Notes under the pieces: model-generated
The model's database searches: none
Told to the model about the DNA's origin: nothing
Seen by the model: the letters and a program-made list of their open reading frames with translations, nothing else
Shown: one piece after another, positions 27,299-60,608 of the stretch
Layout of the letters: the number at the start of each line of letters is the position of its first letter
Position numbering within the stretch: position 1 is the stretch's first letter
Translations under genes and position numbers: made by a program
Virus record (IMG/VR): IMGVR_UViG_3300021255_003438
Span: 13,508 to 77,507 of that record
Origin: a virus
Taxonomy: Duplodnaviria > Heunggongvirae > Uroviricota > Caudoviricetes
Direction: 5' to 3' (one strand)
DNA: 64,000 nucleotides

Positions 27299-27370
27299 TA
27301 GCGAGAGAGAGAATCGAACTCTCACCTAATGAATATGAGTCACTTGTTCTAGCCGTTAGACTATCTCGCT
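27299..27370 (-). tRNA. tRNA-Met/Ile2-type (anticodon CAT)
   Basis: Acceptor AGCGAGA/TCTCGCT. T-arm GAGAG-TTCGATT-CTCTC. Anticodon stem AGTGA/TCATT with loop CTCATAT. Confidence 0.65.
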
Positions 27371-27529
27371 ATGAATTTATTAAATTCTTCTTCTACAAAT
27401 TTGGGGTCATATTTACCCATATCTTTGATTATATATGGAGTGTAACCGCAATTTATAATTTCTTTAATCTTTATTTTATCTCTATTGATATTTTTCCTAA
27501 ACGATTGACCACTCTGCCACCTCGTCATA

Positions 27530-27781
27530 TCAATTAAATATGCTCATAGGGTCTTCATTAACCTTAACAAGCTCAACAGACAATTGGAATCGTGGATTTT
27601 CATCCTTTTCCTTATACTCTTCTGGATGCTCTTCCATCTGTTTCACTTGCTCTTCAAGCCTTTTAATAGCCTCCTTGAGCATTTCAACTTTGTCAGTTCC
27701 AGGATAGTTTAAACCAAACCTAAACTCCTTCCCTTCCATAAGCAACATTTTTGCTTGCAACATTTTTGTAAACTTATCCAT
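27530..27781 (-). CDS. Hypothetical coiled-coil protein. Start uncertain because the 5' end overlaps a tRNA-like element.
   Basis: The ORF track gives 27530..27838. The start is moved to the internal Met (MDKFTKML). Confidence 0.3.
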   Translation of the reverse strand: MDKFTKMLQAKMLLMEGKEFRFGLNYPGTDKVEMLKEAIKRLEEQVKQMEEHPEEYKEKDENPRFQLSVELVKVNEDPMSIFN

Positions 27782-27797
27782 AACCTTAAATAATTTG

Positions 27798-27859
27798 TCG
27801 GTGGTGTTGGACTCGAACCAACCATGCTCTAGAATCATCGCGCCAAAAATTTACCACCG
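27798..27859 (-). ncRNA. Truncated tRNA-like element (no D-arm) with a TTCTAGA loop (anticodon-like CTA)
   Basis: Perfect acceptor CGGTGGT/ACCACCG and T-arm GTTGG-TTCGAGT-CCAAC. Only 62 nt. Weak ATG(A)/(G)CAT stem around a TTCTAGA loop. Confidence 0.3.
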
Positions 27860-27861
27860 TT

Positions 27862-27905
27862 TTGTTAAAAAATGGCTGTTAAGTTAGCTACTCCTAACAG
27901 CCATA
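27862..27905 (-). terminator. Rho-independent terminator-like hairpin (ATGGCTGTTA...TAACAGCCAT + T-tract on the minus strand)
   Basis: 10-bp perfect inverted repeat at 27873-27905, followed on the minus strand by TTTTTTAACAAAA. Confidence 0.4.
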
Positions 27906-28363
27906 AAGCCCATCATATCCCAATCTCCCTCACGTGTTGGGTAGGTGATATGATATAGTCACGAAAGTTTCCATTTTTATAATACAAATATTAATTAATC
28001 AATAAATATAATCTATTTTTTTCCGAGTCATTTTATCTAAAATAGATTCATAATTAACTTCCGTAACTTTTTAAGACTTTTTGTTGTATTCTAATCCGTA
28101 TTTAAAGAACTTCTCACATAGTATCATCACTTGGTTCTGTGACATAAATGATGGCTCACCTAGTAATTCTATTCTCATTTTCTTACGGAAAAATTCTAGT
28201 GCTTCCTTATCCATCATTGTATTCTTTTTAAATAAGTTATTTTCAATAAGTCGTTCTCTCTAGGAACTCGTCATCATCTTCTTCTTTTACAATTATTCCC
28301 ATGTCGAAAATGCAACGTTTTCTTTTGCCACTTGCTTCACACTTCCCATATAACCGACATTTT

Positions 28364-28675
28364 TCATTGCAAGGTATCATGGTCTAATTCTTTTAAAACG
28401 TTATTGGTTAAATCTTTACTTTCTTTTCTGAGGGTTTTAATCTTTTTGTGCGCATTATATTGGTCATATCTGTACGTCCACTTTGTAGCAGTTTTTTTGT
28501 ACTGTTTGACCTTTGAGGATGGGTCAGAGTCAAGTTCTTTCCAATTTTTCGCATTCCTATACCCTCTAGGGGCATTTTTATCTTTAACTATCCAATAGTA
28601 CAAGTTTTTGCTAATGCGAGACACATATTTTGTGTGTGACTTCCACATTCTGAACGCTTTGCCTCTTTTTGTCAT
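28364..28675 (-). CDS. Hypothetical basic protein
   Basis: 103 aa, Lys/Arg-rich. Confidence 0.4.
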   Translation of the reverse strand: MTKRGKAFRMWKSHTKYVSRISKNLYYWIVKDKNAPRGYRNAKNWKELDSDPSSKVKQYKKTATKWTYRYDQYNAHKKIKTLRKESKDLTNNVLKELDHDTLQ

Positions 28676-28771
28676 AGATAAATAGTTTGTAAAGATTATT
28701 TATTCGCTAAATTAATAACGAAATGTTACCAAATGATATGTTTAAAAAGTGTACGAAAAAAACGAACCTTG

Positions 28772-28844
28772 TGATTGGGATGGGACTCAAACCCATATGA
28801 ACAGACTTAGGAGGTCTGTGCCTAATTCTTTCAGCCACCCAACC
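28772..28844 (-). tRNA. tRNA-Arg (anticodon CCT)
   Basis: Acceptor GGTTGGG/CCCAATC (one G-U pair). Anticodon stem CAGAC/GTCTG with loop CTCCTAA. T-arm ATGGG-TTTGAGT-CCCAT. Confidence 0.55.
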
Positions 28845-28898
28845 AAGTAATAAAAAGGCTTACCAACCATTCTCCTAATTGATAAGCCTTAAAAGTGT

Positions 28899-29974: not shown

Positions 29975-30006
29975 CAAAGATATATTTTTTATTTGTAATT
30001 TCCAAA
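29975..30006 (-). promoter_or_regulatory. Bacteroidetes-type promoter (first of a tandem pair)
   Basis: caaagata at 29975-29982 and ccaaa at 30002-30006, spacer 19 nt. Confidence 0.5.
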
Positions 30007-30081: not shown

Positions 30082-30113
30082 CAAAGATATATCTTTTTTT
30101 CGTAATTTCCAAA
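30082..30113 (-). promoter_or_regulatory. Bacteroidetes-type promoter (second of a tandem pair)
   Basis: caaagata at 30082-30089 and ccaaa at 30109-30113, spacer 19 nt. Confidence 0.5.
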
Positions 30114-31110: not shown

Positions 31111-31297
31111 ATATAAAAATTAAATTGATTTCTAAAAAAAAAAAATAAAAATTAGCTGCTAGGGGCAGGCTACGTTCTAACGATTATCCCCTCTTAACTG
31201 AGTACGCCCATAGGTATTATTACGTAATTATCCCCTATTGCTTTCTCTGCCCTGTGGTAGACCTTTATCAAATTACGTCCGCAACAGCTAATTATTG

Positions 31298-31368
31298 TAC
31301 CCCCTCAAGGAATCGAACCTCGTTGTTACAGCACTACGCCAAATGTCCTACCATTAGACGAAAGGGGT
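31298..31368 (-). ncRNA. tRNA-like element with a non-canonical anticodon region
   Basis: Acceptor ACCCCTT/AGGGGGT. D-arm GTC-TAATGGTAG-GAC. T-arm CGAGG-TTCGATT-CCTTG. No clean anticodon stem found. Confidence 0.35.
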
Positions 31369-32987: not shown

Positions 32988-33019
32988 CAAATATATGAAA
33001 AACAAATGGAATAACCAAA
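32988..33019 (-). promoter_or_regulatory. Bacteroidetes-type promoter
   Basis: caaatata at 32988-32995 and ccaaa at 33015-33019. Drives a 37-codon ORF at about 32808-32921 (-). Confidence 0.45.
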
Positions 33020-33046
33020 TATTTTAACATTTATTATGCATTTTGT

Positions 33047-33119
33047 TGCGGAGAAAGGACTCGAACCTCTAACCTCCCCATTATACGTGGGGTGAGCTTC
33101 CCAACTTGCTCTACTCCGC
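33047..33119 (-). tRNA. tRNA (anticodon TAT, Ile-like)
   Basis: Acceptor GCGGAGT/TCTCCGC. D-arm GAGC-AAGTTGGGAA-GCTC. Anticodon stem CCCCA/TGGGG with loop CGTATAA. T-arm AGAGG-TTCGAGT-CCTTT. Confidence 0.5.
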
Positions 33120-33216
33120 GAAACTAAGTATACCTAGAACACCTTTCAACATTGATGAACTTCATAACAGTAACGGCCTATTACCGTTATGCTCTATCAA
33201 CATCTAATCAATGTTG

Positions 33217-33293
33217 TGGGTCTAGAGGGGTTTGAACCCACGTGTAACCAACTACGGTTTCAACTGCTTATGAGGCAGAGCCGATATAGACCC
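33217..33293 (-). ncRNA. Non-canonical tRNA-like gene: no recognizable D-arm, CTCATAA (CAT) anticodon loop, extra hairpin in the variable region
   Basis: Acceptor GGGTCTA/TAGACCC is perfect. Hairpin TCTGC-CTCATAA-GCAGT. Extra AACC-GTAGTT-GGTT hairpin. T-arm GTGGG-TTCAAAC-CCCTC. Confidence 0.4.
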
Positions 33294-33726: not shown

Positions 33727-33758
33727 CAAATATATGATTTTTATTTTTAATAACCAAA
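33727..33758 (-). promoter_or_regulatory. Bacteroidetes-type promoter
   Basis: caaatata at 33727-33734 and ccaaa at 33754-33758, spacer 19 nt. Confidence 0.55.
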
Positions 33759-33762
33759 TATT

Positions 33763-34026
33763 TTAACATTTATTAATGCTATACATCCAATAAATTAAAA
33801 AAAATATCCAACCAACCAAAAACACGATACCATAAGATACGGCCATACAAACATACACATAAACAACATCAAGCAAATTCATAAGGCTTTTGGCGAGCAT
33901 TTCCTTAGTTGGTATGTCACTCACATCACTAGGCACTATGCTATCTTTGAATATAAGAAAACTAGTTAAACAGAATAATGCGATGAGCAATATGATTTTG
34001 AATCTATTTTTATTTTTCATAATCAA
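33763..34026 (-). CDS. Small membrane protein
   Basis: 87 aa with two TM helices. Confidence 0.4.
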   Translation of the reverse strand: MIMKNKNRFKIILLIALFCLTSFLIFKDSIVPSDVSDIPTKEMLAKSLMNLLDVVYVYVCMAVSYGIVFLVGWIFFLIYWMYSINKC

Positions 34027-34048: not shown

Positions 34049-34456
34049 CTAGTAATTCATACGTGAGGGTATAACACCTCTTACGCCACCTCTAGGGTTT
34101 TCAACGTCACCCTCATATCTAGGAATTATGTGTATGTGACAATGATGAATGGTTTGCCCAGCAACCTCTCCACAGTTAATACCAATATTATAACCTTGGG
34201 GATGGTATCTTTCGTCTAATATTTTTTTGGCATTCTCTATCGCATAATGCAATGACTCCTTTTGAGAATCTGATAAATCAAAATATGTTTCAACGTGTTC
34301 CTTTGGTATAATAAGTGTGTGACCTTTAGATACTGGATATTCATCTAATACGGCTTTCCATATAGTTCTGTCGAACAACACATTCTCTTCCTTTTGATTT
34401 TCACAAAAAACACACTTATCCATTGTTCTGCTGCCCATTCTCTCTAATGTGTTCAA
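34049..34456 (-). CDS. HIT-family (histidine triad) nucleotide hydrolase/transferase
   Basis: 135 aa. 'IHHCHIHIIPR' is the HxHxHxx motif. Confidence 0.75.
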   Translation of the reverse strand: MNTLERMGSRTMDKCVFCENQKEENVLFDRTIWKAVLDEYPVSKGHTLIIPKEHVETYFDLSDSQKESLHYAIENAKKILDERYHPQGYNIGINCGEVAGQTIHHCHIHIIPRYEGDVENPRGGVRGVIPSRMNY

Positions 34457-34934
34457 CTGCGCTCTTAAGTGCTACCGAAATGGCTTTTTCAATATTATTG
34501 CTTCTAGAAGAATCAGCTTCAATCTTTACATACTTGAAAGTGACTCTTCCATTTATTTTCTTGCACACACAAATCCATATTGTACCATTTTCACTGTCCT
34601 CATGGATAAATGCGTCACCAATAACACTAATACATACATCTACGTTAAACATATAAGACGCACATAATGCAGTTTTCATTGCCACTTGAGAACTGTATAA
34701 GCCATTCGCCTTTATAACATCTTCACCTATTCCCATCAACGTTTTAAGGGCATCGTCATTGAAATAGTTAAGAGTGCCCTTATATATTGTTGGAACGGCA
34801 CATACGCTTCCTATGGTTGCTCCAAGCAGTCCACAAGTACAATTTTCAACCGTTGCTATCGTTAGACCTCTGTTGAGGATTTCTAGGGCTAATTCTTTCA
34901 ATTCTTCACTCATCGAAATAAACGTTTTTGTCAA
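34416..34934 (-). CDS. pncC: CinA C-terminal domain protein (PncC-like NMN deamidase)
   Basis: 172 aa. 'TIATVENCTCGLLGATIGSV...YSSQVAMKTA...DVCISVIGDA...GTIWI' matches the CinA_C/PncC consensus (ESCTGGLLA...SNE.K...GAVS...MA.GA...ISVTGIAGP...GTV). Confidence 0.6.
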   Translation of the reverse strand: MTKTFISMSEELKELALEILNRGLTIATVENCTCGLLGATIGSVCAVPTIYKGTLNYFNDDALKTLMGIGEDVIKANGLYSSQVAMKTALCASYMFNVDVCISVIGDAFIHEDSENGTIWICVCKKINGRVTFKYVKIEADSSRSNNIEKAISVALKSAVEHIRENGQQNNG

Positions 34935-35286: not shown

Positions 35287-35398
35287 TCCATATATTTTTT
35301 TTTTATTAAACTTTTTGCAAATATATAAAAAAAAATTGGAAGATACAAATATATCTCCCAACTTTAATTTTGTTTAACAATTTGCCTATATGGATGTG

Positions 35399-35472
35399 TG
35401 AGCGTAGTGGGATTCGAACCCACGAACAACGGTTTTAGAGACCGCCCCAATAGACCACTCTAGCATACGCCC
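35399..35472 (-). tRNA. Candidate suppressor tRNA (anticodon CTA, would read UAG)
   Basis: Acceptor GGGCGTA/TACGCTC. T-arm GTGGG-TTCGAAT-CCCAC. Anticodon stem (G)CGGT/ACCG(T) with loop CTCTAAA (U33, CUA, A37). The D-arm is irregular. Own promoter at 35481-35511. Confidence 0.45.
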
Positions 35473-35480: not shown

Positions 35481-35511
35481 CAAATATATGAAAAATAATT
35501 TGCATAGCAAA
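35481..35511 (-). promoter_or_regulatory. Bacteroidetes-type promoter driving the CUA tRNA
   Basis: caaatata at 35481-35488 and caaa at 35508-35511, spacer 19 nt. Confidence 0.5.
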
Positions 35512-35576
35512 ATAATTTAAAGAATTTTAATAAAAAAGCACCATAAGCAAGAGCCTATAGTGCTTTTTATATTGTA

Positions 35577-36177: not shown

Positions 36178-36429
36178 ATGATATATTTTTTAATTTGTTT
36201 GTTATTATTAATGAATTTAAATTACTTCACTTATATTTCCCATTCAAACTAAAATATATCAGGACCACGAATCTTTTTCAGCTACCAGAATTCGTCAGAA
36301 ATCTACCAAAAACTGTTCTTTTTCATAATGTTAATTAATTTAATTTGTTATTAAAAAACGGAAGCTCTTTTTCTAGAATAAATTGATTACAAGTCAAGCC
36401 CTATTAGAAATTGCTGTAAGCTTCCTTAC

Positions 36430-36456: not shown

Positions 36457-36462
36457 CTCTAG

Positions 36463-36535
36463 TAGCGACCCTTGGAGTCGAACCAAGTGTTACAAGGTTA
36501 TGAGCCTTGTGTGTAAGCCGTTTCACTCGGTCACT
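36463..36535 (-). tRNA. tRNA-Met/fMet/Ile2-type (anticodon CAT)
   Basis: Acceptor AGTGACC/GGTCGCT. Anticodon stem CAAGG/CCTTG with loop CTCATAA. T-arm CTTGG-TTCGACT-CCAAG. Confidence 0.65.
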
Positions 36536-36650: not shown

Positions 36651-37076
36651 GATTGAGCTAATATTGAGTTATATTAAAACTTACGGATATACTTTATCAG
36701 GAATCTGGCTTTCTCTGCTGAAGACTTATTTTTACCCATCCACTCATAGGAACTTCACAGAGTGCTTCACACACCATTAGGTAGCATCGAATGAGATAGT
36801 ATTCCATACGCTAGTGGAACTATATAGACATTGTTACATACCTCAATCTACATTCTTCTTAGTGTGTACCCTTGCGACAAATGTACCCACGCTTGTATAT
36901 CTACGCCTCTATCGTAAGTTTTGTGTTGAAGGGAACTTTTTTTTTCGGTATTCGTTTCAAGCAAATTCCATATAGTCATTGCTGTAAGTTCCCGCTATTG
37001 GTTAAGGAATTGGAAACGGTAGAGCCACACTACGAAACTCTCTACCTACTCATCGTAGCATTATCCAAAACCTTAG

Positions 37077-37149
37077 TGGAGGTAGAGAGACTCGAACTCT
37101 CAAATATAGCTTGCAGAGCTATCAGTTTAGCCTGTTAGCCTATACCCCC
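37077..37149 (-). tRNA. tRNA-Ala (anticodon TGC)
   Basis: Acceptor GGGGGTA/TACCTCC with the G3:U70 Ala identity pair. Anticodon stem ATAGC/GCTAT with loop TCTGCAA. T-arm GAGAG-TTCGAGT-CTCTC. Confidence 0.65.
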
Positions 37150-37686: not shown

Positions 37687-37811
37687 CAGGGACTGATGGA
37701 CTCGAACCACCATTTTTCATTAACAGTTAAAGGCGTAATCTGTTCCGCAGTCGAGACTACGTTAATTCCTTAAATCGTAACAAACCACTCTTACCCTTGA
37801 GCTAAATCCCT
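37687..37811 (-). ncRNA. Long tRNA-like gene (~125 nt) with acceptor + D-arm + T-arm and ~50 extra nt
   Basis: Acceptor AGGGATT/AGTCCCT. D-arm GCTC-AAGGGTAA-GAGT. T-arm GGTGG-TTCGAGT-CCATC. Extra internal hairpins, including AACAG...CTGTT. Confidence 0.35.
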
Positions 37812-38612
37812 ATATAAATATACAAAAGACTGAGAATGTTGTCTTATGTTGATGCCGTCACACAACGGTTGGACGTTGCTCTTCACACGCTGCCTTACAG
37901 CAGACGTAGACACCATGCACGATGATTTTGCGAAAACCACCAAAAAACTTACTAGTTTAAACCTCTCGGTGCAGCATCATAGCTTTCAGTTCTTCGCCAA
38001 GCTCTTGCGGATTCATAGGATGCCTCCTATTAACTCAGGCGAGTACTTTTACACGCTCATTGAATTCCTTGCGAGTCCTCAATGTCTTCATATTGCAGAA
38101 GAATAAGTGCATTTTAGCTGCCTAGTGTCGCGCACTTTTGCTAATATAAAACCGTTTGAATCAACATTTCAAAATTTTATTGCCCATGACCTTGGAAGAC
38201 GAGGCGCGACCCATCGCATTCGTACCTTTTGAGTACGACCCACGAAATCGCCTTCCTACAAAGACTCACCACAAGTCCAATTGCTGTTATGCACTATCAG
38301 CCTTACGGTTCTCACGCCTTTCAGCGCAAGACTAGCGAATAACTAAACCCAACACGCCAACTGGTGATTATTGCATCGAGTTCAGCACAGTAATCTATTG
38401 TGTCACCACTCATCCAAAGACTCTTCGCCCTTGGAAACCTACACCTATGGTGTTACCCACGATGTAGACCGTACTATGCTCTTTTCAGTGAAATGCCTCA
38501 GTCAGCCAAGGCATCTGCAACGCTACTTGGTCAATTTCACGCCACATTTATCCTATCACTAGATTATCCTTAATGGCTACGAAAGCTAGCCAAAACCCCT
38601 TGCGAGATTCGT
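37800..38612 (-). ncRNA. GC-richer ~0.8 kb region with no ORFs: candidate large structured RNA or degenerate tRNA-like array
   Basis: No ORF over 90 codons on either strand. GC visibly higher than its flanks. Long-range complementarity (for example GGAAGACGAGGCG...CGCCTTCC, TTCGTAC...GTACGA). Embedded between tRNA genes on the transcribed strand. Confidence 0.3.
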
Positions 38613-38722: not shown

Positions 38723-38759
38723 AAAAGGTGGTTTTTCAATTTGTCCACCACAAAATAGT

Positions 38760-38866: not shown

Positions 38867-38875
38867 AAATGTAGT

Positions 38876-46084: not shown

Positions 46085-46106
46085 AACACTTAGTTTTAAA
46101 ATTATG

Positions 46107-49670: not shown

Positions 49671-49677
49671 CCAATTT

Positions 49678-49748
49678 TGTGGATGCAATAGGATTCGAAC
49701 CTATGTTTTTTTACCATTGTATATGGTCACTCCCCAGAGGAGTCCTTA
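49678..49748 (-). ncRNA. tRNA-like element (good acceptor/T-arm, aberrant D/anticodon region)
   Basis: Acceptor GGATGCG/TGCATCC. T-arm ATAGG-TTCGAAT-CCTAT. ACCA-TATACAA-TGGT hairpin. Confidence 0.35.
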
Positions 49749-49761
49749 CACGCATCCATAT

Positions 49762-49953: not shown

Positions 49954-49975
49954 AGTTATTATAATTTCAATTTTG

Positions 49976-50047
49976 CAGTGACGATGGGATTCGAACCCAC
50001 GACTTTTGGTTAGACAGACCAACGCTCTACCACTGAACTACGCCACT
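49976..50047 (-). tRNA. tRNA-Asp (anticodon GTC)
   Basis: Acceptor AGTGGCG/CGTCACT. D-arm GTTC-AGTGGTA-GAGC. Anticodon stem TTGGT/ACCAA with loop CTGTCTA. T-loop TTCGAAT. Confidence 0.65.
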
Positions 50048-50065
50048 ATTTGAACTAATTTTTTG

Positions 50066-50138
50066 AGCCGTGTGAGGGATTCGAACCCACGACATTCACA
50101 TTACAAGGGTGACGCTCTACCAACTGAGCTAACACGGC
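50066..50138 (-). tRNA. tRNA-Thr (anticodon TGT)
   Basis: Acceptor GCCGTGT/ACACGGC is perfect. D-arm GCTC-AGTTGGTA-GAGC. Anticodon loop CTTGTAA. T-loop TTCGAAT. Confidence 0.7.
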
Positions 50139-50220
50139 ATTGTTAAACTAGGTCTGCACTCCCCTCGCATGCTACGTGTCGGAGTTACTTGCATTGCTGC
50201 ATTTGTTGTTACCTAGTTTG

Positions 50221-50293
50221 TGGGGCTGGGTGGAGTTGAACCACCGACACGAGGATTTTCAGTCCTCTGCTCTACCACCTGAGCTACAGCCCC
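50221..50293 (-). tRNA. tRNA-Phe (anticodon GAA)
   Basis: Acceptor GGGGCTG/CAGCCCC. D-arm GCTC-AGGTGGTA-GAGC. Anticodon stem GAGGA/TCCTC with loop CTGAAAA. T-arm GGTGG-TTCAACT-CCACC. Confidence 0.75.
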
Positions 50294-50597: not shown

Positions 50598-50629
50598 CAA
50601 ATATATGATTTTTTTTTCAAATAGCCAAA
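50598..50629 (-). promoter_or_regulatory. Bacteroidetes-type promoter
   Basis: caaatata at 50598-50605 and ccaaa at 50625-50629, spacer 19 nt. Confidence 0.55.
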
Positions 50630-51392: not shown

Positions 51393-51429
51393 TTATATGG
51401 TTATTTAAAGTTTCACAATGCAAAGATAT

Positions 51430-51461
51430 ATATTTTTTTTATAAATTCCAAATTTTTAGAA
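51430..51461 (-). promoter_or_regulatory. Bacteroidetes-type promoter
   Basis: caaagata at 51430-51437 and ccaaa at 51457-51461, spacer 19 nt. Confidence 0.55.
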
Positions 51462-51924: not shown

Positions 51925-51960
51925 TGTATAGGGGGTGGGAGTCGAACCCACAACTACCTT
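51925..51960 (-). ncRNA. Orphan tRNA 3' half (T-arm + acceptor 3' strand) directly downstream of tRNA-Arg
   Basis: GTGGG-TTCGACT-CCCAC then CCCCTAT. No 5' partner strand within 100 nt. Confidence 0.35.
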
Positions 51961-51965
51961 ATTCG

Positions 51966-52040
51966 TTGCTCGTCTGGGACTCAAACCCAGGACCCTATCT
52001 TTCGTAGAGATATGCTCTAATTCAACTGAGCTAACGAGCA
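51966..52040 (-). tRNA. tRNA-Arg (anticodon ACG)
   Basis: Acceptor TGCTCGT/ACGAGCA. D-arm GCTC-AGTTGAATTA-GAGC. Anticodon stem TATCT/AGATA with loop CTACGAA. T-arm CTGGG-TTTGAGT-CCCAG. Confidence 0.65.
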
Positions 52041-52459
52041 ATAAAAAGGAAACGTAGGTTTTCGAGCTTGCTTATTCTGCTATTACTATGAGGGTGGTAT
52101 TTCAAGATTGACTCCACACATCCTAGCGAATATGCTTCAACGTCTCCCACCTATCCTACACTCATATGCCATTGCTACTGTTATTCACAAGAGTAACACG
52201 TTATGCAGCCCTAGCCTTATCTTTTGGAATTGTAACGAGTTAAGATTTCATATGCTGTACGTTTCCGATATATTGTGTCAATTGCGACAAAAGAAAAAAG
52301 GAACGACCAATTTTATGTCTTGGCTCGACATTCGCCCCGAAGAGCATAGGTAAGTGCCTCGCAATGATGATTTAACGCTTCTCTTACCTTCGTCTAGTCT
52401 GAATTAAAAATGTGTTCTTATAAATTTATTTTAATCAAACTGCTGTACGTTCCTACTTG

Positions 52460-52533
52460 TACATCCGCTGGGACTCGAACCCAGAACCTACGGCTTAGAA
52501 GGCCGTTGCTCTAATCCATTGAGCTACGGATGC
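52460..52533 (-). tRNA. tRNA-Arg (anticodon TCT)
   Basis: Acceptor GCATCCG/CGGATGT. D-arm GCTC-AATGGATTA-GAGC. Anticodon stem ACGGC/GCCGT with loop CTTCTAA. T-arm CTGGG-TTCGAGT-CCCAG. Confidence 0.7.
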
Positions 52534-52867: not shown

Positions 52868-52899
52868 CAAATATATGAAAAAAAATTGAAATAGCCAAA
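52868..52899 (-). promoter_or_regulatory. Bacteroidetes-type promoter (drives two small TM-peptide ORFs at about 52536-52851, then tRNA-Arg)
   Basis: caaatata at 52868-52875 and ccaaa at 52895-52899, spacer 19 nt. Confidence 0.5.
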
Positions 52900-54299: not shown

Positions 54300-54340
54300 T
54301 CTATGTAGGGTAGAAGGGATTCGAACCCCCCACAAACCTT
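54300..54340 (-). ncRNA. Orphan tRNA 3' half downstream of the 54343..54420 tRNA
   Basis: GGGGG-TTCGAAT-CCCTT then CTACCCT-A. No partner 5' strand. Confidence 0.35.
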
Positions 54341-54342
54341 TG

Positions 54343-54420
54343 TACCGCTGGTGGGAGTCGAACCCACAAAATGACGCTACCCCTAAAATAGCCGACTTTA
54401 CCTAATTTGCCCACAGCGGT
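54343..54420 (-). tRNA. tRNA (anticodon TAG, Leu-like) with an irregular D region
   Basis: Acceptor ACCGCTG/CAGCGGT is perfect. Hairpin GCTAT-TTTAGGG-GTAGC. T-arm GTGGG-TTCGACT-CCCAC. Confidence 0.4.
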
Positions 54421-54547
54421 ATTATTTAGACAGATTGAATTTTTGACTCCATTTATGTATTGCTTTATCACTAACCTCAAAATATTTTCCAGTTTTTGTT
54501 TTGTTCCAATTGCGATTAGCGGTTTTGAACAAATATTGCTGTTTGTT

Positions 54548-54621
54548 TCCTTACAAGTGGACTCGGAGGGAATTGAACCCACGACCTTCAGATTATGAGT
54601 CTGCTGCTCTAACCAACTGAG
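54548..54621 (-). tRNA. tRNA-Met/Ile2-type (anticodon CAT)
   Basis: Acceptor GGACTTG/CGAGTCC. D-arm GCTC-AGTTGGTTA-GAGC. Anticodon stem (G)CAGA/TCTG(A) with loop CTCATAA. Confidence 0.6.
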
Positions 54622-54825
54622 CTACAAGTCCTTACACCAATATGGATAATTCCTCTTTTCAGATTCTGGTGTATCTGTCAACTCATACCTTGCGCCACAG
54701 TAAGGACAATGGGCATAAGTCACCATTGCATCGTCTTCTTCACTCAAATCTTCTCCGTTGATTTCACTGAGCATAAAGTTTCCCTCTAGAATTAGGTCAT
54801 GCTCACAACGCATACATTTTTCCAT
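54622..54825 (-). CDS. Small zinc-ribbon protein
   Basis: 67 aa. CxxC...CxxC. Confidence 0.35.
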   Translation of the reverse strand: MEKCMRCEHDLILEGNFMLSEINGEDLSEEDDAMVTYAHCPYCGARYELTDTPESEKRNYPYWCKDL

Positions 54826-54843: not shown

Positions 54844-54957
54844 AGCCGTGTGCTGGATTCGAACCAACGTTTGTACTTAAACACCCCTTGTGCATATGCT
54901 GGTACCTACTGGGGTCGCCTCGTTTGCGCTGTGCTGACCGTCTTACACTAACACGGC
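54844..54957 (-). ncRNA. Long tRNA-like gene (~114 nt) sharing the acceptor stem with tRNA-Thr(TGT)
   Basis: Acceptor GCCGTGT/ACACGGC. T-arm GTTGG-TTCGAAT-CCAGC. About 85 nt internal with GGTACC/GCATATGC palindromes. Confidence 0.35.
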
Positions 54958-55231
54958 AATTTCTTGAGCAGTGTAGGAGATTCGAACTCCCTCCTTGACC
55001 TTGGCAAGGTTATATGCTACCATTAACACCAACACTGCAAAGTCAGTTTTTATAACCGTAAAACTGAAAAACTTCCTCCACCTACGATGAGGCAATAGTT
55101 TGAATCCCTTCAGGGACTACTGACGTTACGTTGAGCCTCAAATCTCTTTTGATAGTCTTTTTTAACGTGCAGATAATCTAGCAAGTAGTATGTACACGAT
55201 ATTTTAAGGAAACGTTTGTTGTTTATTTTTT

Positions 55232-55320
55232 AGTGCTCTAACCAACTGAGCTACCACGCTATGTTATTATGATTTAGTAGCGTGGACAGGATTCGAACCT
55301 GTGACCCCTAGCTTGAAATG
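55232..55320 (-). ncRNA. Permuted/split tRNA-like unit A: 3' half then 17-nt linker then 5' half
   Basis: On the sense strand: ...GGGTC-ACAGG-TTCGAAT-CCTGT-CCACGCT-A, then CTAAATCATAATAACAT, then AGCGTGG-TA-GCTC-AGTTGGTTA-GAGC-A, then an A-rich tail. The acceptor strands are perfectly complementary (7/7). Confidence 0.45.
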
Positions 55321-55358
55321 CTTTTTAAACGATGTACTTTGCTGTACGTTTCCACTTG

Positions 55359-55430
55359 AGCGAGTAAAGGGAATCGAACCCTCATCAGAAGATTGGAAAT
55401 CTCCTACACTAACCGTTGTGCTATACTCGC
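55359..55430 (-). tRNA. tRNA-Gly (anticodon TCC)
   Basis: Acceptor GCGAGTA/TACTCGC. D-arm GCAC-AACGGTTA-GTGT. Anticodon stem GGAGA/TCTTC with loop TTTCCAA. T-loop TTCGATT. Confidence 0.65.
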
Positions 55431-56734: not shown

Positions 56735-56766
56735 CAAAGATATACAAAAAAATTGTAAATTCCAAA
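56735..56766 (-). promoter_or_regulatory. Bacteroidetes-type promoter upstream of the OmpA-like gene
   Basis: caaagata at 56735-56742 and ccaaa at 56762-56766, spacer 19 nt. Confidence 0.55.
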
Positions 56767-57074: not shown

Positions 57075-57100
57075 AACATTACCTTAAAAAACGGATACTT

Positions 57101-57165
57101 TTGTTTAATATACCAATACCCACGAATGGGTGCTTAAACCATTTGTTTAGGTTTAGCTTGGATTC
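57101..57165 (-). ncRNA. Permuted/split tRNA-like unit C (3' half then 8-nt linker then 5' half)
   Basis: On the sense strand: CTTGG-TTCGAAT-CCAAG-CTAAACC-T, then AAACAAAT, then GGTTTAA-GC-ACCC-ATTCGTG-GGT. Acceptor strands pair 6/7. Confidence 0.4.
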
Positions 57166-57359
57166 GAACCAAGAAATTGTAACAAAATTACATTGCTGTA
57201 AGTATCCTTGCGTTAATTATATCAACTATCACGTTTGGACTGCTACTAGAGACCTTACCCCCATCCATACCTCTCTAGGAAGATAACCTAGCACATTCTT
57301 TCAATTTCCATGACCCCACAGTTTATTGGACTTACGTGGCACGATTATTTGATATATAG

Positions 57360-57432
57360 TCTAGGTGAAGGGACTTGAACCCCCGACCACAGCCGCCCAA
57401 GGGCCGCATTCTACCTACTGAACTACACCTAG
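57360..57432 (-). tRNA. tRNA-Pro (anticodon TGG)
   Basis: Acceptor CTAGGTG/CACCTAG is perfect. D-arm GTTC-AGTAGGTA-GAAT. Anticodon stem CGGCC/GGCTG with loop CTTGGGC. T-loop TTCAAGT. Confidence 0.6.
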
Positions 57433-57460
57433 ATTTTTCGGAAACATTTTTTATTTTTTA

Positions 57461-57530
57461 CATTGCTCTACCAACTGAGCTACAACGAGCTATTGCCCAT
57501 TGAAGAGACTCGAACTCTTGACCTACGGAT
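57461..57530 (-). ncRNA. Permuted/split tRNA-like unit B (3' half then 5-nt linker then 5' half)
   Basis: On the sense strand: AAGAG-TTCGAGT-CTCTT-CAATGGG-C, then AATAG, then CTCGTTG-TA-GCTC-AGTTGGTA-GAGC-A, then an A-rich tail. Acceptor strands pair 7/7 with two G-U. Confidence 0.4.
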
Positions 57531-57732
57531 TACAAATCATAATAAAAACGTTTGCATTGCTGTATGTTTCCTTTTATGTTTTATGAAACTGTTTTGGCTC
57601 TATGCTTTCTGTTCTATCACGTTCCAATACGTAATCCCTAAGAAGGGTTAGGCTTAACGAATTATTCTTTTACATTTCATTCGCCCTCTTGCTACGATAG
57701 CAAGACTGTGATTACTCACCGTTCAGTCTCAT

Positions 57733-57810
57733 TGAGCAAGCCTATGGAATCGAACCATTCTTTCCCTCGGATGAGGGCTGTGCTAGCCATTACACCAAAG
57801 CCGCATTTTA
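57733..57810 (-). ncRNA. tRNA-like element (T-arm AATGG-TTCGATT-CCATA). Anticodon region is a tetraloop hairpin.
   Basis: T-arm present. CCCTC-ATCC-GAGGG hairpin. Poor acceptor pairing. Confidence 0.25.
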
Positions 57811-57821: not shown

Positions 57822-57853
57822 CAAAGATATAAAAAATATTTGAGAACTCCAAA
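57822..57853 (-). promoter_or_regulatory. Bacteroidetes-type promoter
   Basis: caaagata at 57822-57829 and ccaaa at 57849-57853, spacer 19 nt. Confidence 0.55.
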
Positions 57854-58016
57854 TTTTTTACCATTTTTTGGCATTAAAATCCCATTTCTTCCTTAGTTGG
57901 TTCTTCTGAACCGCCTATTCTTATACCTTCTGCCAATAGTTTCAGCATTTCCCTATCTTTTTCGTTTGGGAATCTTTTTTCAGCTAGCCTATAATATTTT
58001 CTTTTTTTCATATTTG

Positions 58017-58090
58017 GGTGTACGACAGGATTCAAACCTGCGTATACAAGTGCCACAAACTTGCGCCTAAGTCTCTCGGCCACGTACACC
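58017..58090 (-). tRNA. tRNA-His (anticodon GTG) with encoded G-1
   Basis: G-1 pairs with C73. Acceptor GTGTACG/CGTACAC is perfect. Anticodon stem CAAGT/ACTTG with loop TTGTGGC. T-arm GCAGG-TTTGAAT-CCTGT. Confidence 0.65.
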
Positions 58091-58242
58091 ATGTTTAAAA
58101 CTAGGTGTTGCAACATTAGAAATGGGCTTACAATATTCGACATTCGGCTCAACCGCTCTAGATTTCGGTATCATAGCCTCCTCCTCGTAGCCTCTTACTG
58201 CCATTCTAAACCTAGTTTTATGAAAACGGAATCTATAAACTT

Positions 58243-58313
58243 TCGGTAGGTTGAGACTCGAACTCAAATCTCTTAGTAAAAGCCAAGGCTCTAACCCATT
58301 GAGCTACCCATCG
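58243..58313 (-). ncRNA. tRNA-like gene (canonical D- and T-arms, unresolved anticodon stem)
   Basis: D-arm GCTC-AATGGGTTA-GAGC. T-arm TTGAG-TTCGAGT-CTCAA. Acceptor pairs 6/7. Confidence 0.4.
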
Positions 58314-58340
58314 CGTTACCTTATGCTGTTAGATTCCTTT

Positions 58341-58421: not shown

Positions 58422-58426
58422 TTTTG

Positions 58427-58499
58427 TCAGGGTACTTGGACTCGAACCAAGAACAGCGTGTCTCCAAAGCACGTCGTCTACCTATTGACGTACACCCTG
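58427..58499 (-). tRNA. tRNA-Pro-like (anticodon TGG), second copy
   Basis: Acceptor CAGGGTG/TACCCTG. D-arm CGTC-AATAGGTA-GACG. Anticodon stem CGTG(C)/(A)CACG with loop TTTGGAG. T-arm CTTGG-TTCGAGT-CCAAG. Confidence 0.5.
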
Positions 58500-58593
58500 A
58501 GTTAAAATGCCAACACGTTAGAATTCTTGCATTATTACCTCTATAGTCTTATGCTGCTCTTAGAGAGGTTGCCTAAAGACTTGTGTTAGCTTG

Positions 58594-58679
58594 TCGGAGG
58601 AGAGGGATTCGAACCCCCTGCGTATCTTACGTGCTAGATTTACAGTCTAGTGCCCATCCACCATCTGAGCAGCCCTCCG
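58594..58679 (-). tRNA. tRNA-Tyr (anticodon GTA), type II
   Basis: Acceptor CGGAGGG/TCCTCCG. D-arm GCTC-AGATGGTGGAT-GGGC. Anticodon stem CTAGA/TCTAG with loop CTGTAAA. Variable-arm hairpin CGTA-AGA-TACG. T-loop TTCGAAT. Confidence 0.65.
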
Positions 58680-58902
58680 ATTTTAAAGCATAGGTTTCTC
58701 AACCACAATCCTTTCGAATTGACCACAGTGGTGAACTGTGTATGCTTTTATGTTTATTTAATTTTTCTATTTCATTTATTTATTATCGTCATAACAACAC
58801 GGATATGGACATTTCACCCTTAATGCTCTATCACGCCCATCACAAGGATTGCAAGAACATGCGTCACAACGTTTTTTCCACTTTTCTTCGTATTCGTTCA
58901 TG

Positions 58903-59340
58903 TTACTTAAACTTACCCAATCGTATACTTTCCACTAAATAATCGTATAATATTTCCCAATCTGTTTCAGCATCAAATCCAAATTTATCATCAATGCCTA
59001 CATTGAAATATGTTTTTTCATCGAAACAAGACAACGATGTATTTTTTGTTTCAATGTTTCGGTTAATATAATCAAACCGAATGCCATTAGCTTTAAAATA
59101 TCCAATATACTCATCTATTATGTTTTTATAAGTTGATGTCCAAAGAATTAAAGAAATTTGTTGCGCATGGCTCATAATATCCAATGCTTCTTTCGCAAAG
59201 GGATACCATTTATATTCTTCCTTGTTGTGATAGCACGCTTCAAACACTGTATCGTGTATATCCACAAGGACATAGATTTTCTCCCAATTACGTTCTTTCA
59301 TTCTTTTGAAAGCGCCTTCGAAACTCTTAGTTATACTCAT
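58903..59340 (-). CDS. HAD-superfamily 5'(3')-deoxyribonucleotidase-like (NT5C family)
   Basis: 145 aa. 'IYVLVDIHDTV' is the DxDxT motif at the N-terminus. Size fits NT5C. Confidence 0.45.
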   Translation of the reverse strand: MSITKSFEGAFKRMKERNWEKIYVLVDIHDTVFEACYHNKEEYKWYPFAKEALDIMSHAQQISLILWTSTYKNIIDEYIGYFKANGIRFDYINRNIETKNTSLSCFDEKTYFNVGIDDKFGFDAETDWEILYDYLVESIRLGKFK

Positions 59341-59775
59341 ACTTATAATTTCATTTTAGAAAAGATTCCTACATCTGTCATAGAGCAATTAACTCAAAGG
59401 CAAATAGACTTCATATTCGATGTAAAATTGCTTCTACAAGTTTTCAATCCATCACCACTTTTATTTACCTGGAAGTGCAGATTCTCACTGCTTTTCTCTT
59501 ACACAGTCTCCATCTGGTTGCTTTACCAATCACACTGGCCTCAATCACGTGTTTGCCACTACAAGGTCTTCCAACTGTCAATTCAGTATCCCCATTGAAA
59601 TAAATTATTTCGCCCTCGGAATCTTTTGTTAAAAAAAGGATAGTAGTCTCAAATCAAGCAAACAAACCAAAGTACCCTCTATGGCTGTTATGACATTCTC
59701 ATATGCCTTGGGTAATCTGCATCAAATGACATATCTCGAAAGACTTGCTATCCTACAAGGCTTACATACCCATTT

Positions 59776-59800
59776 TGTCAGCCAAGGTAGATTCGAACTA
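59776..59800 (-). ncRNA. Orphan T-arm/acceptor 3' fragment (GGTAG-TTCGAAT-CTACC + TTGGCTG)
   Basis: No complementary 5' strand found. Confidence 0.25.
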
Positions 59801-60101
59801 CCACCGTTATTTCTAACGCCATCAAGTCTTCCCAATTGCACTATAACTTGAAACCTCCTAGCCCAATGTAGGTGTGCTACCATTACTCCATTGACTGAAT
59901 TTGCTACATCGGTGGGATTCGAACCCAACGTAGAAACGAAAATGTTTCGACTCATATCTAACAAGGATGCACTTTTAAGGTCTTTGCTAGCAATTGACCT
60001 CCTAGTTTCATTGACTGTTTGTCTCATTTGTCCCAGATGTGGCATTAAGACTTGCAATTTTCTTAAAAATCCATATCCATTCCTCTGATACGATGCAGTT
60101 G

Positions 60102-60174
60102 TTGGGATTAAGGGAATCGAACCCCTACAGACCAAGAGTCAGAGTCTTGCGTACTACCATTATACTAAACCCCA
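60102..60174 (-). tRNA. tRNA-Gln (anticodon CTG)
   Basis: Acceptor TGGGGTT/AATCCCA. D-arm GTA-TAATGGTAG-TAC. Anticodon stem CAAGA/TCTTG with loop CTCTGAC. T-arm AGGGG-TTCGATT-CCCTT. Confidence 0.55.
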
Positions 60175-60262
60175 AAGTAAAGGGAACATTTTTAACCGTA
60201 TTCTTAAAACCCAAATTTAATTACTTGTTAATTCAATAATACTTGCTGTAAGTTCCCACTTG

Positions 60263-60334
60263 TAGCGCATAGGAGAGTCGAACTCCTCTTTAGAGAATGA
60301 AAATCTCTCGTCCTAGCCGATAGACGAATGCGCC
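60263..60334 (-). tRNA. tRNA-Glu (anticodon TTC)
   Basis: Acceptor GGCGCAT/ATGCGCT. D-stem GTCT/GGAC. Anticodon stem AGAGA/TCTCT with loop TTTTCAT. T-arm AGGAG-TTCGACT-CTCCT. Confidence 0.6.
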
Positions 60335-60484
60335 ATTAAAGAAAGATGCTGTGTTGGAGGCGTGAATCTCTCGCCCACTATTCTCATACTACGGATGGAA
60401 AACACCAGTGCATGTAGGGTACGACTTTCCACATTTAATATACTTCGGTGCATTTCGAACTACACCTTTTCTAACATCTTTTTG

Positions 60485-60557
60485 TAGTCGTAGGGAGGCT
60501 CGAACTCCCATTCTCTGCGTGAGAGGCAGTACTCCTAACCTTTTAGAGGATACGACC
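60485..60557 (-). tRNA. tRNA-Glu (anticodon CTC)
   Basis: Acceptor GGTCGTA/TACGACT. D-arm CTCT-AAAAGGTTA-GGAG. Anticodon stem (A)CTGC/GCAG(A) with loop CTCTCAC. T-arm GGGAG-TTCGAGC-CTCCC. Confidence 0.55.
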
Positions 60558-60576
60558 ATTTTCAAATTTCACGTTG

Positions 60577-60608
60577 CAAATATATGAAAAAAAATCGGAA
60601 TATCCAAA
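60577..60608 (-). promoter_or_regulatory. Bacteroidetes-type promoter at the head of the tRNA island
   Basis: caaatata at 60577-60584 and ccaaa at 60604-60608, spacer 19 nt. tRNA-Glu 5' end at 60557. Confidence 0.55.

Follow-up and report, generated by a model that had tools for sequence, protein, structure and literature searches.

Clusters of tRNA genes in phages are usually explained by codon usage or by the evasion of tRNA-cleaving defences. What, then, is to be made of an island that combines its tRNAs with a large and conserved complement of tRNA mimics? Such an island lies on the minus strand of a 64,000-nucleotide (nt) stretch of viral DNA (IMG/VR record IMGVR_UViG_3300021255_003438, positions 13,508 to 77,507; hereafter the window, whose numbering is used unless another locus is named). 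A preliminary description made from the letters and open reading frames (ORFs) placed here, at 27299-60608, about 32 decodable tRNAs and at least 15 non-canonical tRNA-like genes. Both numbers were borne out: ARAGORN and the Rfam model RF00005 gave 33 decodable tRNAs on the minus strand, not the fewer than 20 at which the description was to be given up, and at least 20 non-canonical elements are present. The latter do exist but are not of one kind, comprising several conserved RNA families and a few fragments. Judging from sequence and arrangement, we consider it probable, if far from assured, that this is an island for translation takeover and tRNA quality control in which one family, the ACAGCA cassettes, provides Y-RNA-like partners of a Ro60-like protein.

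The window contains 13 such cassettes, all on the minus strand, with the layout 5'-GGrAnnnU-ACAGCAA-cargo-A-rich-nnnUyCC-U-run-3'. When up to three mismatches were allowed, the motif GGAAACGUACAGCA occurred 17 times where 4 were expected; 14 occurrences were on the minus strand and 13 inside the island, and ACAGCA was invariant in 13 of the 13 cassettes. The first 7-8 nt of the motif pair with the downstream nnnUyCC, beyond which the U-run begins, and the stems of paralogues covary (GGAAGCUU/AGCUUCC, GGGAACUU/AAGUUCCC, GGAUACUU/AAGUAUCC, GGAAUCUA/UAGAUUCC, GGAAACAU/AUGUUUCC and GGAAACGU/ACGUUUCC). Among 41 distinct instances from the clade, a perfect 8-bp partner was found downstream in 17 and upstream in none, against an expectation of 0.71. 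Minimum free energy folding of single cassettes was uninformative (z-scores of -1.5 and -2.8), and a scan of viral contigs with a 14-base cassette motif returned mostly chance matches. A reading of GGAAAC as the -35 box of an extracytoplasmic function (ECF)-type promoter for the phage sigma factor was discarded, since no conserved -10 element lies downstream and the 8-mer of the cassette has a complementary downstream partner far above chance. Integron attC sites and miniature inverted-repeat transposable elements (MITEs) were also rejected as readings of the inverted repeats, given their strict orientation with transcription, their abutment to tRNA 3' ends and the retention of pairing across differing sequences.

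The cargo may be nothing, a T-arm, a whole odd tRNA, a circularly permuted tRNA-like domain or a copy of the ribosomal L1 stalk. It is absent from the cassette at 60179-60257 (GGGAACUU-ACAGCAA ... GUUCCC-UUU), which starts 5 nt after tRNA-Glu, and consists at 58228-58337 (GGAAUCUA/UAGAUUCC) of an odd tRNA with a 6-nt anticodon loop (58243-58313; Rfam 44.2 bits). A T-arm and two hairpins are found at 57093-57207 (GGAUACUU/AAGUAUCC, G+U6 tail), and permuted tRNA-like domains at 57440-57571 and at 55208-55353 (GGAAACGU/ACGUUUCC, 5 nt after tRNA-Gly). The motif also occurs at 54421-54550 (GGAAACAA-ACAGCAA, 7 nt after tRNA-Met) and 52330-52454 (AGGAACGU-ACAGCAG, 5 nt after tRNA-Arg), and the cassette at 52048-52266 (GGAAACGUA/UACGUUUCC, 9 bp, U5 tail) holds the L1 stalk. 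Short cassettes measure 53-79 nt and often carry an anticodon-like hairpin; they lie at 41069-41121 (with such a hairpin and a G+U6 tail), 38966-39029, 36931-36993 (GGGAACUU/AAGUUCCC) and 36360-36425 (GGAAGCUU/AGCUUCC, hairpin, G+U6 tail). A 7-nt anticodon-like loop at the tRNA-like offset of 28-42 was present in about 45% of cassettes and in 16% of control windows; these loops have the form CU-NNN-AA, for example with GUA, GUC, UUU, GCA or UGA. At 27215-27295 (AGGAACA/UGUUCCU, U6 tail), directly after tRNA-Met, a cassette combines a T-arm with the identity elements of tRNA-Cys, a GCA loop and a discriminator U; Cys is the amino acid for which the island has no normal tRNA, and the Rfam tRNA score of this cassette is only 25.3 bits.

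The two permuted cassettes contain a domain of the YrlA type (T-arm, D-arm and a 7-bp acceptor stem closed by a loop), in which the T-arm and the closed acceptor stem covary. Across seven orthologues and paralogues, 97.5% of cells pair, compared with 30-49% in slid controls, and double changes are seen in 11 of the 24 pairs. YrlA is a class of Y RNA known from ribonucleoproteins with Ro60 (Rsr), and carries near its 5' end the Ro-binding motif GNCGAAN0-1G (PMC4201824). The Rfam YrlA model (RF02553) covers only the tRNA-like module of the permuted cassettes, with 39.8 bits at 55208-55353 and 34.1 bits at 57440-57571; a further match scored 24.3 bits, and the gathering score is 69. The Ro-binding motif was not found in 12 of the 13 cassettes and its single match looks like chance, ACAGCA standing in its place. 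Since the architecture is YrlA-like and the canonical Ro-binding motif is absent, the cassettes are YrlA-like but not YrlA. Neither are they true circularly permuted tRNA genes of the Cyanidioschyzon type: the halves are in permuted order, but the ends rebuild no anticodon arm and instead form a GGAAAC/GUUUCC stem with A-rich and ACAGCAA linkers.

A candidate protein partner, of 557 amino acids and with DUF2828, DUF7788 and VWA_2 assignments, is encoded outside the window on the same strand as the cassettes (locus L015, 1394-3067, plus strand of that locus). It has 1,423 homologues, on contigs of up to 428 kb, and homologues are present in 563 cultured phage records and in loci L262-L267; the corresponding PHROG 850 is annotated 'RNA-binding protein', and mycobacteriophage annotators use the term 'Ro-like'. 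Typically the DUF2828 gene sits next to the tRNA cluster, and it abuts it in Enterococcus phage EfV12-phi1, E. coli phage wV8 and Bacillus phage Skywalker. The 830-nt gap before the gene in EfV12-phi1 holds four tandem RNAs, three of them YrlA-like (45, 34 and 28 bits), and all four show the order nnnnnnnn-ACAGC(A/G)A ... complementary strand-UUG. We then counted, across phages, each ACAGC[AG]A whose upstream 10-mer has at least 7 contiguous Watson-Crick pairs within 300 nt, with shuffles as the expectation. Paired motifs made up 34 of 71 in the rumen-type clade of the window and its relatives (4.3 expected), 4 of 7 in EfV12-phi1 (0.54), 3 of 4 in both wV8 (0.18) and Whirlwind (0.34), 5 of 7 in Leptolyngbya phage Lbo-JY46 (0.48) and 6 of 7 in Skywalker (0.36), compared with 0 of 8 and 0 of 3 in the control loci L002 and L019 (0.48 and 0.2). 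Nearly all paired motifs of the cultured phages are on the strand of the DUF2828 gene and no more than 3 kb away, one Skywalker match lying at about 3.9 kb. Both between and within phages the stem sequences are wholly different, and ACAGCAA is constant. RNAs of this kind thus accompany DUF2828 genes and tRNA clusters in cultured phages of five lineages, from Enterococcus, E. coli, Mycobacterium, Bacillus and Leptolyngbya, that is, in four bacterial phyla besides Bacteroidota.

Phage proteins of the Ro60 group have precedents, in TROVE proteins that occur with RNA ligases in jumbo phages (PMC7824862) and in the Ro60 of Thermus phage phiLo (PMC12135203). The likeness to Ro60-YrlA lies in the modular build of the cassettes, with paired 5' and 3' ends beside a conserved single-stranded motif and a tRNA-like domain in addition, in their sharing a strand with a protein that may have a helical ring and a von Willebrand factor A (vWA) fold, and in the link to RNA ligases. 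The differences are that the protein belongs to DUF2828/DUF7788 and not to Pfam TROVE, that the RNA motif is ACAGCAA and not GNCGAAN0-1G, and that there are up to 13 copies with varied cargo, most of them without a tRNA-like domain. YrlA, moreover, lies within 4 kb of the Ro60 gene, whereas in this phage the cassettes are spread through the tRNA island, at least 9.5 kb from the DUF2828 gene.

The cargo of the cassette at 52048-52266 is of a different origin. Positions 52087-52166 correspond to positions 2131-2210 (helices H76-H78) of the large-subunit rRNA (RF02541), with a score of 63.1 bits (gathering score 50; E 3e-16), and the flanks are cassette sequence and not rRNA. The 219-nt cassette unit is 94% identical in contig 3300028833_002293, and stand-alone copies with non-rRNA flanks were found in at least three other, unrelated viral contig lineages; copies outside the window lie in L014 (13257-13476), L019 (2484-2566), L021 (479-544), L022 (1239-1305) and L024 (10-76). 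In L019/L021 the copy precedes a tRNA array by 530 nt and spans nearly the same rRNA positions (2129-2212). The literature that we searched held no description of a free-standing phage L1-stalk RNA, and a genome scan with the L1-stalk pattern matched the 23S rRNA of many phyla, which says nothing on the host. L1-binding mimics of rRNA are known from the autoregulatory site in the L11 operon mRNA, the native counterpart being the 23S L1 stalk, H76-H78. Like these, the phage cargo keeps the H76 and H77 sequences and by analogy should bind uL1 and possibly tRNA elbows; unlike the L11-operon operator it is a complete stalk domain and would be a free RNA within an ACAGCA cassette. The phage copy may be a decoy for uL1 or for the tRNA elbow, and its independent presence in several phage lineages hints at a new manipulation of ribosomes or of ribosomal-protein regulation.

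Together the tRNA-like elements beyond the decodable tRNAs number more than 20. A second conserved family among them consists of RNAs of about 110 nt, with two copies in the window (38613-38723 and 38760-38867, minus strand). Each has a 7-bp acceptor stem, U8-A9 and a 3-bp D-like stem, in whose loop lie a conserved GAGGAGAAC, a hairpin that usually ends in a loop of four nucleotides (of the GNRA type in many copies) and GAUGUAGACAAAU. The arms at the anticodon and variable positions are capped by short loops, usually tetraloops, which leaves the RNA without an anticodon loop; the T-arm has the loop UGCAAAU, and a discriminator A comes after it. By exact-pattern scan the family was found in 10 viral loci and in no bacterial genome, and an alignment of 21 distinct copies revealed compensatory double changes in 20 of 33 pairs. 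Its place is always between a tRNA(CAU) of 82-85 nt with the same odd T-loop and a GOLLD-like RNA.

Further elements depart from the cloverleaf in other ways. Two tRNAs, with GAU at 40763-40839 (32.3 bits) and CAU at 33217-33293 (31.1 bits), have a rearranged D-arm: a covarying 3-bp stem (CGG/CCG, CAC/GUG, CUC/GAG) encloses the anticodon arm and is followed by a D-loop-like AGUUGGUUA, which reads AGUAGGUC at 40763-40839. Insert-type elements of 113-125 nt, kept in relatives, combine perfect acceptor, D- and T-arms with an insert of about 50 nt. They comprise 54845-54957 (113 nt; 7-bp acceptor stem, insert at the anticodon position), 59779-59897 (119 nt; 7-bp acceptor stem, insert replacing the anticodon arm, 94% identical in L014) and 37687-37811 (125 nt; Rfam tRNA 35.3 bits), the last of which follows the GOLLD-like RNA in all relatives. 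Two Rfam tRNA matches of about 118 nt with large inserts were also seen in Aeromonas phage phiAS5 (L262, 9757-9874 and 10025-10142), 2.3-2.7 kb downstream of the DUF2828 gene of this cultured Straboviridae phage. Other elements of the island are an undecodable one with a T-arm at 59903-59971 (kept in L013 and L014), one with a 6-nt anticodon loop at 57734-57804 (kept in L014), two with a 7-bp acceptor stem and T-arm, of which 49679-49757 has an aberrant interior and 48288-48361 a weak D-arm (called as Ala(UGC) at low threshold only), and one with a T-arm and an 8-nt anticodon loop at 41123-41201. As far as comparison of sequences can tell, most non-canonical elements are conserved structured RNAs and not decayed genes.

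How might these components work together? Host RNA polymerase would transcribe mixed mRNA-tRNA units, from which RNase P and RNase Z would free the tRNAs, to be finished by the phage CCA-adding enzyme. With tRNAs that favour A/U-ending and rare codons (AUA, AGA, AGG, CUA), phage translation could become independent of a depleted or cleaved host tRNA pool, and the supply would serve an AT-rich genome as well as counter tRNA-targeting defence. The non-canonical elements would mostly be functional tRNA mimics. In the cassettes, stem and ACAGCA would form the module bound by the DUF2828/vWA Ro60-like protein, and the cargo (anticodon-like hairpin, T-arm, permuted tRNA domain or L1 stalk) an adaptor that steers the ribonucleoprotein to tRNAs, to tRNA enzymes or to the ribosomal L1/E-site region during infection. 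Together with the two RNA ligases, cassettes and protein could make up a system of tRNA and ribosome quality control or repair directed against host tRNA-targeting defences. A wider proposal, which we make tentatively and hold to be just short of evenly balanced, is that the stem-ACAGCAA RNAs are an undescribed, cross-phylum class of phage Y-RNA-like adaptors with steering cargo, cognate to DUF2828 Ro60-like proteins, and that the 110-nt family and the L1-stalk copies are further new classes in the same translation-hijack toolkit. If true, this would offer a possible function for a widespread protein whose annotation goes no further than 'RNA-binding protein'. Since the family recurs in tractable phages (Felix O1-like, Herelleviridae, Cluster L mycobacteriophages, Bacillus phages and a cyanophage), the idea that a phage Ro60-like/Y-like ribonucleoprotein supervises the phage tRNA pool can be tested.

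Several observations weigh against a Ro60-like partnership. The DUF2828 gene is not adjacent to the cassettes, the nearest of which is 9.5 kb away, the gene lying upstream of the island; the structural model of its product has Ro60 as best match but is of moderate confidence (pLDDT 70, pTM 0.54), and a sequence search of the PDB with the protein gave zero matches. Phage phiAS5 has the DUF2828 protein and yet no paired ACAGCA in the 13 kb examined (0 of 5 motifs, 0.4 expected). To these must be added the missing Ro-binding motif, the YrlA scores below the gathering score and several cassettes (54421-54550, 52330-52454) that have no clean 3' partner in the window. Could the cassettes then act purely in cis, with stem and U-run as terminator or 3'-end protector and the tRNA-like shapes as 'punctuation' for RNase P and RNase Z, without a trans role or a protein partner? 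A cassette usually starts 4-7 nt behind a tRNA and has GUUUUUU or UUUUUAU as its end, and the island shows no enrichment of classic GC-rich intrinsic terminators (12 against 8.5 expected), so that the cassette stem and U-run could simply be the terminators. Processing signals would also be needed, because most tRNAs have an ORF before them and an RNA gene directly follows no more than 4 of the 17 island promoters. Nevertheless we judge this reading unlikely. A terminator requires neither an invariant ACAGCA beside its stem nor an L1 stalk or a permuted tRNA as cargo, and a 7-8-bp stem that closes a loop of 50-200 nt makes a poor intrinsic terminator. Nor would terminators be expected to form tandem arrays next to the DUF2828 genes of five unrelated phage lineages, in which the 3' flank consists of GUU or GAU and not of a U-run.

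It could be argued, alternatively, that the non-canonical elements are neutral debris, namely decaying tRNA duplicates and recombination scars left by homing endonucleases and mosaic evolution. The island does contain three HNH genes, a relative at 94-98% identity differs by many block replacements, and the elements at 48288, 49679 and 41123 have no homologue in the loci fetched. Three more look like fragments, which also counts against a fully functional set: an orphan T-arm with 3' acceptor strand after tRNA-Arg (51928-51964, probably a fragment), another right after tRNA-Leu (54307-54341, probably a fragment or scar) and a truncated long-variable-arm tRNA-Lys(CUU) that is intact in relatives (44386-44450). 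Evidence against decay comes from the 110-nt family, the permuted cassettes, the 125-nt element and the rearranged-D-arm tRNAs, in which extensive compensatory covariation and invariant loops are seen among phages 75-95% identical, and from the retention of the cassette motif across phyla. Debris is thus largely refuted for the main families and has little chance as a general explanation; it stays likely for about 5 elements. An equally improbable account makes the anticodon-less and anticodon-like mimics (the 110-nt family and cassettes with CU-NNN-AA loops) decoys that soak up host tRNA-targeting nucleases or toxins without any Ro60-like protein, the candidate targets being PrrC/RloC-type anticodon nucleases, PARIS AriB and retron or HEPN effectors. 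In its favour, phage tRNAs are an established counter to tRNA-cleaving defences, two of the three tRNA-Lys genes have altered T-loops, RNA ligases and the CCA-adding enzyme are nearby, and anticodon-like loops are enriched among cassettes. This enrichment is only about 3-fold, no host nuclease was identified, and decoys would leave the invariant ACAGCA and the L1-stalk cargo unexplained. A partnership of the cassettes with the Ro60-like protein is the reading that we prefer.

The decodable tRNAs form the canonical part of the island. With default settings ARAGORN called 31 tRNA-type genes and one tmRNA between 27298 and 60557, all on the minus strand, with a three-nt anticodon in 30 of the 31; 34 matches reached the RF00005 gathering score of 29 bits. 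Membership being defined by at least this score, a cloverleaf and a 7-nt anticodon loop, the 33 decodable tRNAs are the ARAGORN/Rfam set together with two tRNA-Lys from Rfam only and a Ser(GCU) from a lowered ARAGORN threshold. The two rearranged-D-arm tRNAs also have an intact anticodon loop, bringing the total to 33-35, and 19 amino acids are covered in addition to an amber suppressor. The anticodons listed in the preliminary description were almost exactly right, Gly(GCC) and the second Leu(UAG) having been missed. A scan for a T-arm with a 7-bp acceptor stem gave 39 minus-strand sites and a single plus-strand site, which puts the observation far beyond chance. The anticodons match codons favoured by the phage (AUA, AGA/AGG, GCA, CCA and ACA).

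Unless stated otherwise, the following minus-strand genes were found by both ARAGORN and Rfam, with Rfam bits in brackets. From the upstream end these are tRNA-Glu(CUC) at 60484-60557 (48.8), Glu(UUC) at 60262-60334 (52.6), Gln(CUG) at 60101-60174 (58.6), a class II Tyr(GUA) at 58593-58679, Pro(UGG) at 58426-58499 (50.2) and again at 57359-57432 (60.6), His(GUG) at 58016-58089, Gly(UCC) at 55358-55430 (65.9), Gly(GCC) at 54966-55038, Met(CAU) at 54557-54631 (69.9), Leu(UAG) at 54342-54420 (43.2), Arg(UCU) at 52459-52533 (73.2) and Arg(ACG) at 51965-52040. They are followed by Phe(GAA) at 50220-50293, Thr(UGU) at 50065-50138, Asp(GUC) at 49975-50047, Asn(GUU) at 49601-49672, Ser(UGA) at 47933-48028, Ser(GCU) at 46106-46191 (lowered ARAGORN threshold only), Lys(UUU) at 45536-45607 (Rfam only, 50.6) and 45452-45527, Lys(CUU) at 45371-45442 (Rfam only, 47.8), Thr(CGU) at 44291-44364, Trp(CCA) at 43241-43330 (ARAGORN) and Val(UAC) at 41390-41466. 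The remainder are an 82-nt tRNA(CAU) at 38874-38955 (44.2), with a variable arm, a 1:72 mismatch and the T-loop UGCAAAU, Ala(UGC) at 37076-37149, Met(CAU) at 36462-36535, the amber suppressor tRNA(CUA) at 35398-35472 (57.1), Ile(UAU) at 33045-33120, a weakly scoring Leu(UAG) at 31297-31368 (35.5), Arg(CCU) at 28771-28844 and Met(CAU) at 27298-27370.

None of the tRNA genes of the island encodes CCA, for which reason a CCA-adding enzyme is needed. Nearly all 3' flanks between 27298 and 60557 read N73, then C, then an A-rich trailer, typically CAA or CAAG, which fits the CCA-adding enzyme of the phage; the trailer may be a shared processing signal. Anticodon nucleases often target tRNA-Lys. The three tRNA-Lys genes stand in tandem at 45371-45607 (CUU, UUU, UUU), and the outer two, with the non-canonical T-loops UUGCAAAAU and UGGCAGAAU, could be cleavage-resistant variants. 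The tRNA-Trp(CCA), at 90 nt, has a 5-bp variable arm and G73, and relatives carry long-variable-arm Lys, Thr, Met, Asn, Arg and Asp tRNAs (L004, L011, L012, L013 and L014). A long variable arm and G73 are identity elements for SerRS, so that mischarging or recoding is conceivable. The suppressor starts 9 nt behind a promoter motif. Its versions in relatives are of class II, 86-92 nt long and with A73. TAG ends 8 of the 74 ORFs of the window, and any recoding must therefore affect other, perhaps late, genes elsewhere in the genome. The suppressor and the tRNAs with a variable arm on Trp or CAU or with a D-arm enclosing the anticodon arm are in this respect candidates for recoding.

Beyond what had been described before, the island holds a tmRNA and a GOLLD-like RNA as well as the L1-stalk copy, all on the minus strand. 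The tmRNA (40376-40735; ARAGORN) matched positions 1-374 of RF00023 with 57.9 bits (gathering score 47); its tag GEYIDTPAYEYAIAA is followed by a stop, and orthologues were found in all relatives (53-74 bits). The conserved 3' domain of the GOLLD-like RNA (37827-38256) matched RF02032 over its full length, positions 1-416, with 73.2 bits (E 1e-17), far under the gathering score of 150. The alignment covers the conserved motifs UCAAAAG, AGCAAAAGU, CUCGCAAGG and UCUCAG-CU, and the 356 nt upstream (to 38612) may be the 5' domain. Six relatives keep this RNA, at 45-75 bits and with an embedded tRNA in L004 and L011. It lies downstream of the tRNA(CAU) and is preceded by 1-3 copies of the 110-nt family, in line with the published pattern of GOLLD near phage tRNA islands, downstream of tRNA-Met and with tRNAs attached (PMC12286853, PMC6582537).

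How is the island expressed? The preliminary description had placed promoters of the Bacteroidetes sigma-A type throughout it, and the bipartite motif TTTG-N18-22-TAnnTTTG (-33 TTTG/-7 TAnnTTTG) indeed occurs 30 times in the window against 3.8 expected, a number reached by none of 100 shuffles. Of these motifs 28 are on the tRNA strand; 17 lie inside the island and an 18th just downstream (27064-27095), and nine related loci show the same strand specificity. Neither the -7 box by itself (94 against 89 expected) nor E. coli-type sigma-70 promoters are enriched; the latter we discarded as expression signals along with GC-rich terminators. The motif at 60577-60608, 20 nt before tRNA-Glu(CUC), forms the upstream edge that had been assigned to the island. 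Three others have an RNA gene close downstream, the range for all four being 9-39 nt: 57822-57853 (18 nt before the element at 57804), 39068-39099 (39 nt before the cassette heading the unit of tRNA(CAU), 110-nt RNAs and GOLLD-like RNA) and 35481-35512 (9 nt before the suppressor). The rest, likewise on the minus strand, are at 56735-56766 (before an OmpA-like ORF), 52868-52899, 51421-51452, 50598-50629, 43663-43694, 41679-41710, 39393-39424, 35318-35349, 33848-33877 (a weaker match), 33727-33758, 32988-33019, 30082-30113 and 29975-30006. As the remaining tRNAs are mostly positioned behind ORFs, co-transcription with mRNAs is more probable than the multiple independently expressed tRNA units that had been suggested; to judge from this layout, mixed mRNA-tRNA transcripts that need processing are likely the rule.

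The tRNA content had been called exceptional for a phage. This was an overstatement, given a jumbo phage of 201 kb with relatives of up to 428 kb, and tRNA arrays of large size that include tmRNA and GOLLD have been described from jumbo phages and phage-derived arrays (PMC12286853, PMC6582537). Mycobacterium phage-derived arrays carry GOLLD and HNH genes (PMC6582537), and GOLLD/ROOL are 'often near tRNA islands' (PMC12286853). As in those arrays, the island has dozens of co-oriented tRNAs with near-complete amino-acid coverage, interspersed HNH genes, a tmRNA and a GOLLD-type RNA downstream of a tRNA(CAU) with pseudo-tRNAs attached. It differs in that its tRNAs are not packed but scattered singly among about 38 ORFs over 33 kb, that the GOLLD match reaches 73 against 150 bits, and that more than 20 extra conserved tRNA-like RNAs are present. 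Taken as a tRNA island, it is large but belongs recognisably to a known type; new are the conserved tRNA-mimic families, the Ro60-like-linked ACAGCA cassettes across phyla and the L1-stalk cargo. Stable small RNAs also occur in the tRNA cluster of phage T4 (species 1 and 2), and bacterial tRNA operons give rise to small RNAs derived from the 3' external transcribed spacer. By analogy, the cassettes would be small stable non-tRNA RNAs that are co-transcribed with tRNAs and freed by tRNA-processing enzymes, with the difference that the T4 species are not known to be associated with a Ro-like protein. Non-canonical cloverleafs, finally, have been described as 8/4 and 9/3 allo-tRNAs, including phage examples (PMC5389517). 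What is shared is the occurrence, in phage clusters, of tRNAs with unusual arms, among them long variable arms on tRNAs with neither a Ser nor a Leu anticodon, but the acceptor/T branch of the island stays 7/5; what is odd here is that Trp and CAU tRNAs have a variable arm, that a D-arm surrounds the anticodon arm and that there are 50-nt inserts.

The island is that of a jumbo phage of at least 201 kb with a Bacteroidota host. ENA ERZ12302814 NODE_38 (201,037 bp) is 99.99% identical to the window, and IMG/VR contig 3300021399_003927 (129 kb) matches it as a mosaic, with 94-98% identity. Islands syntenic with this one are present in viral contigs of 93-413 kb; the relative L002, reached through the radical-SAM protein, is without tRNAs and was of no use for covariation. 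Since a megablast of 10 kb of the island against the INPHARED phages gave zero matches, the phage belongs to an uncultured clade. The window has a G+C content of 31-41%, and its minus strand carries all genes but one, the RNA genes of the island being mixed with the ORFs on one strand. In and around the island are encoded two RNA ligases, the CCA-adding enzyme, NAD-salvage enzymes, three HNH endonucleases, the radical-SAM protein and Band 7, OmpA-like and TelA proteins; directly upstream of the window lie a sigma factor, TyrRS, NAD synthase, a single-stranded DNA-binding protein (SSB) and the DUF2828/vWA protein. An RNA repair and NAD module flanks the island, with the RNA ligases, the CCA-adding enzyme, NADAR, NAPRTase, an isochorismatase-type nicotinamidase, NUDIX, HIT and CinA/PncC (genes at 210-896, 2978-3481, 4704-5927, 7425-8327, 9131-9742, 9984-11381, 25575-26165 and 34049-34934). 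Of these, 7425-8327 (minus strand) is an RNA ligase (PF09414), the second being at 210-896, and 9984-11381 (minus strand, outside the island) is the CCA-adding enzyme, with a PolyA_pol head, RNA-binding and HD domains. The three HNH-type genes of the island (39777-40352, plus strand; 44461-45306 and 47044-47844, minus strand) probably drive the mosaic differences from the 94-98% relative. The first of them is the sole convincing plus-strand gene of the window, and it abuts the tmRNA.

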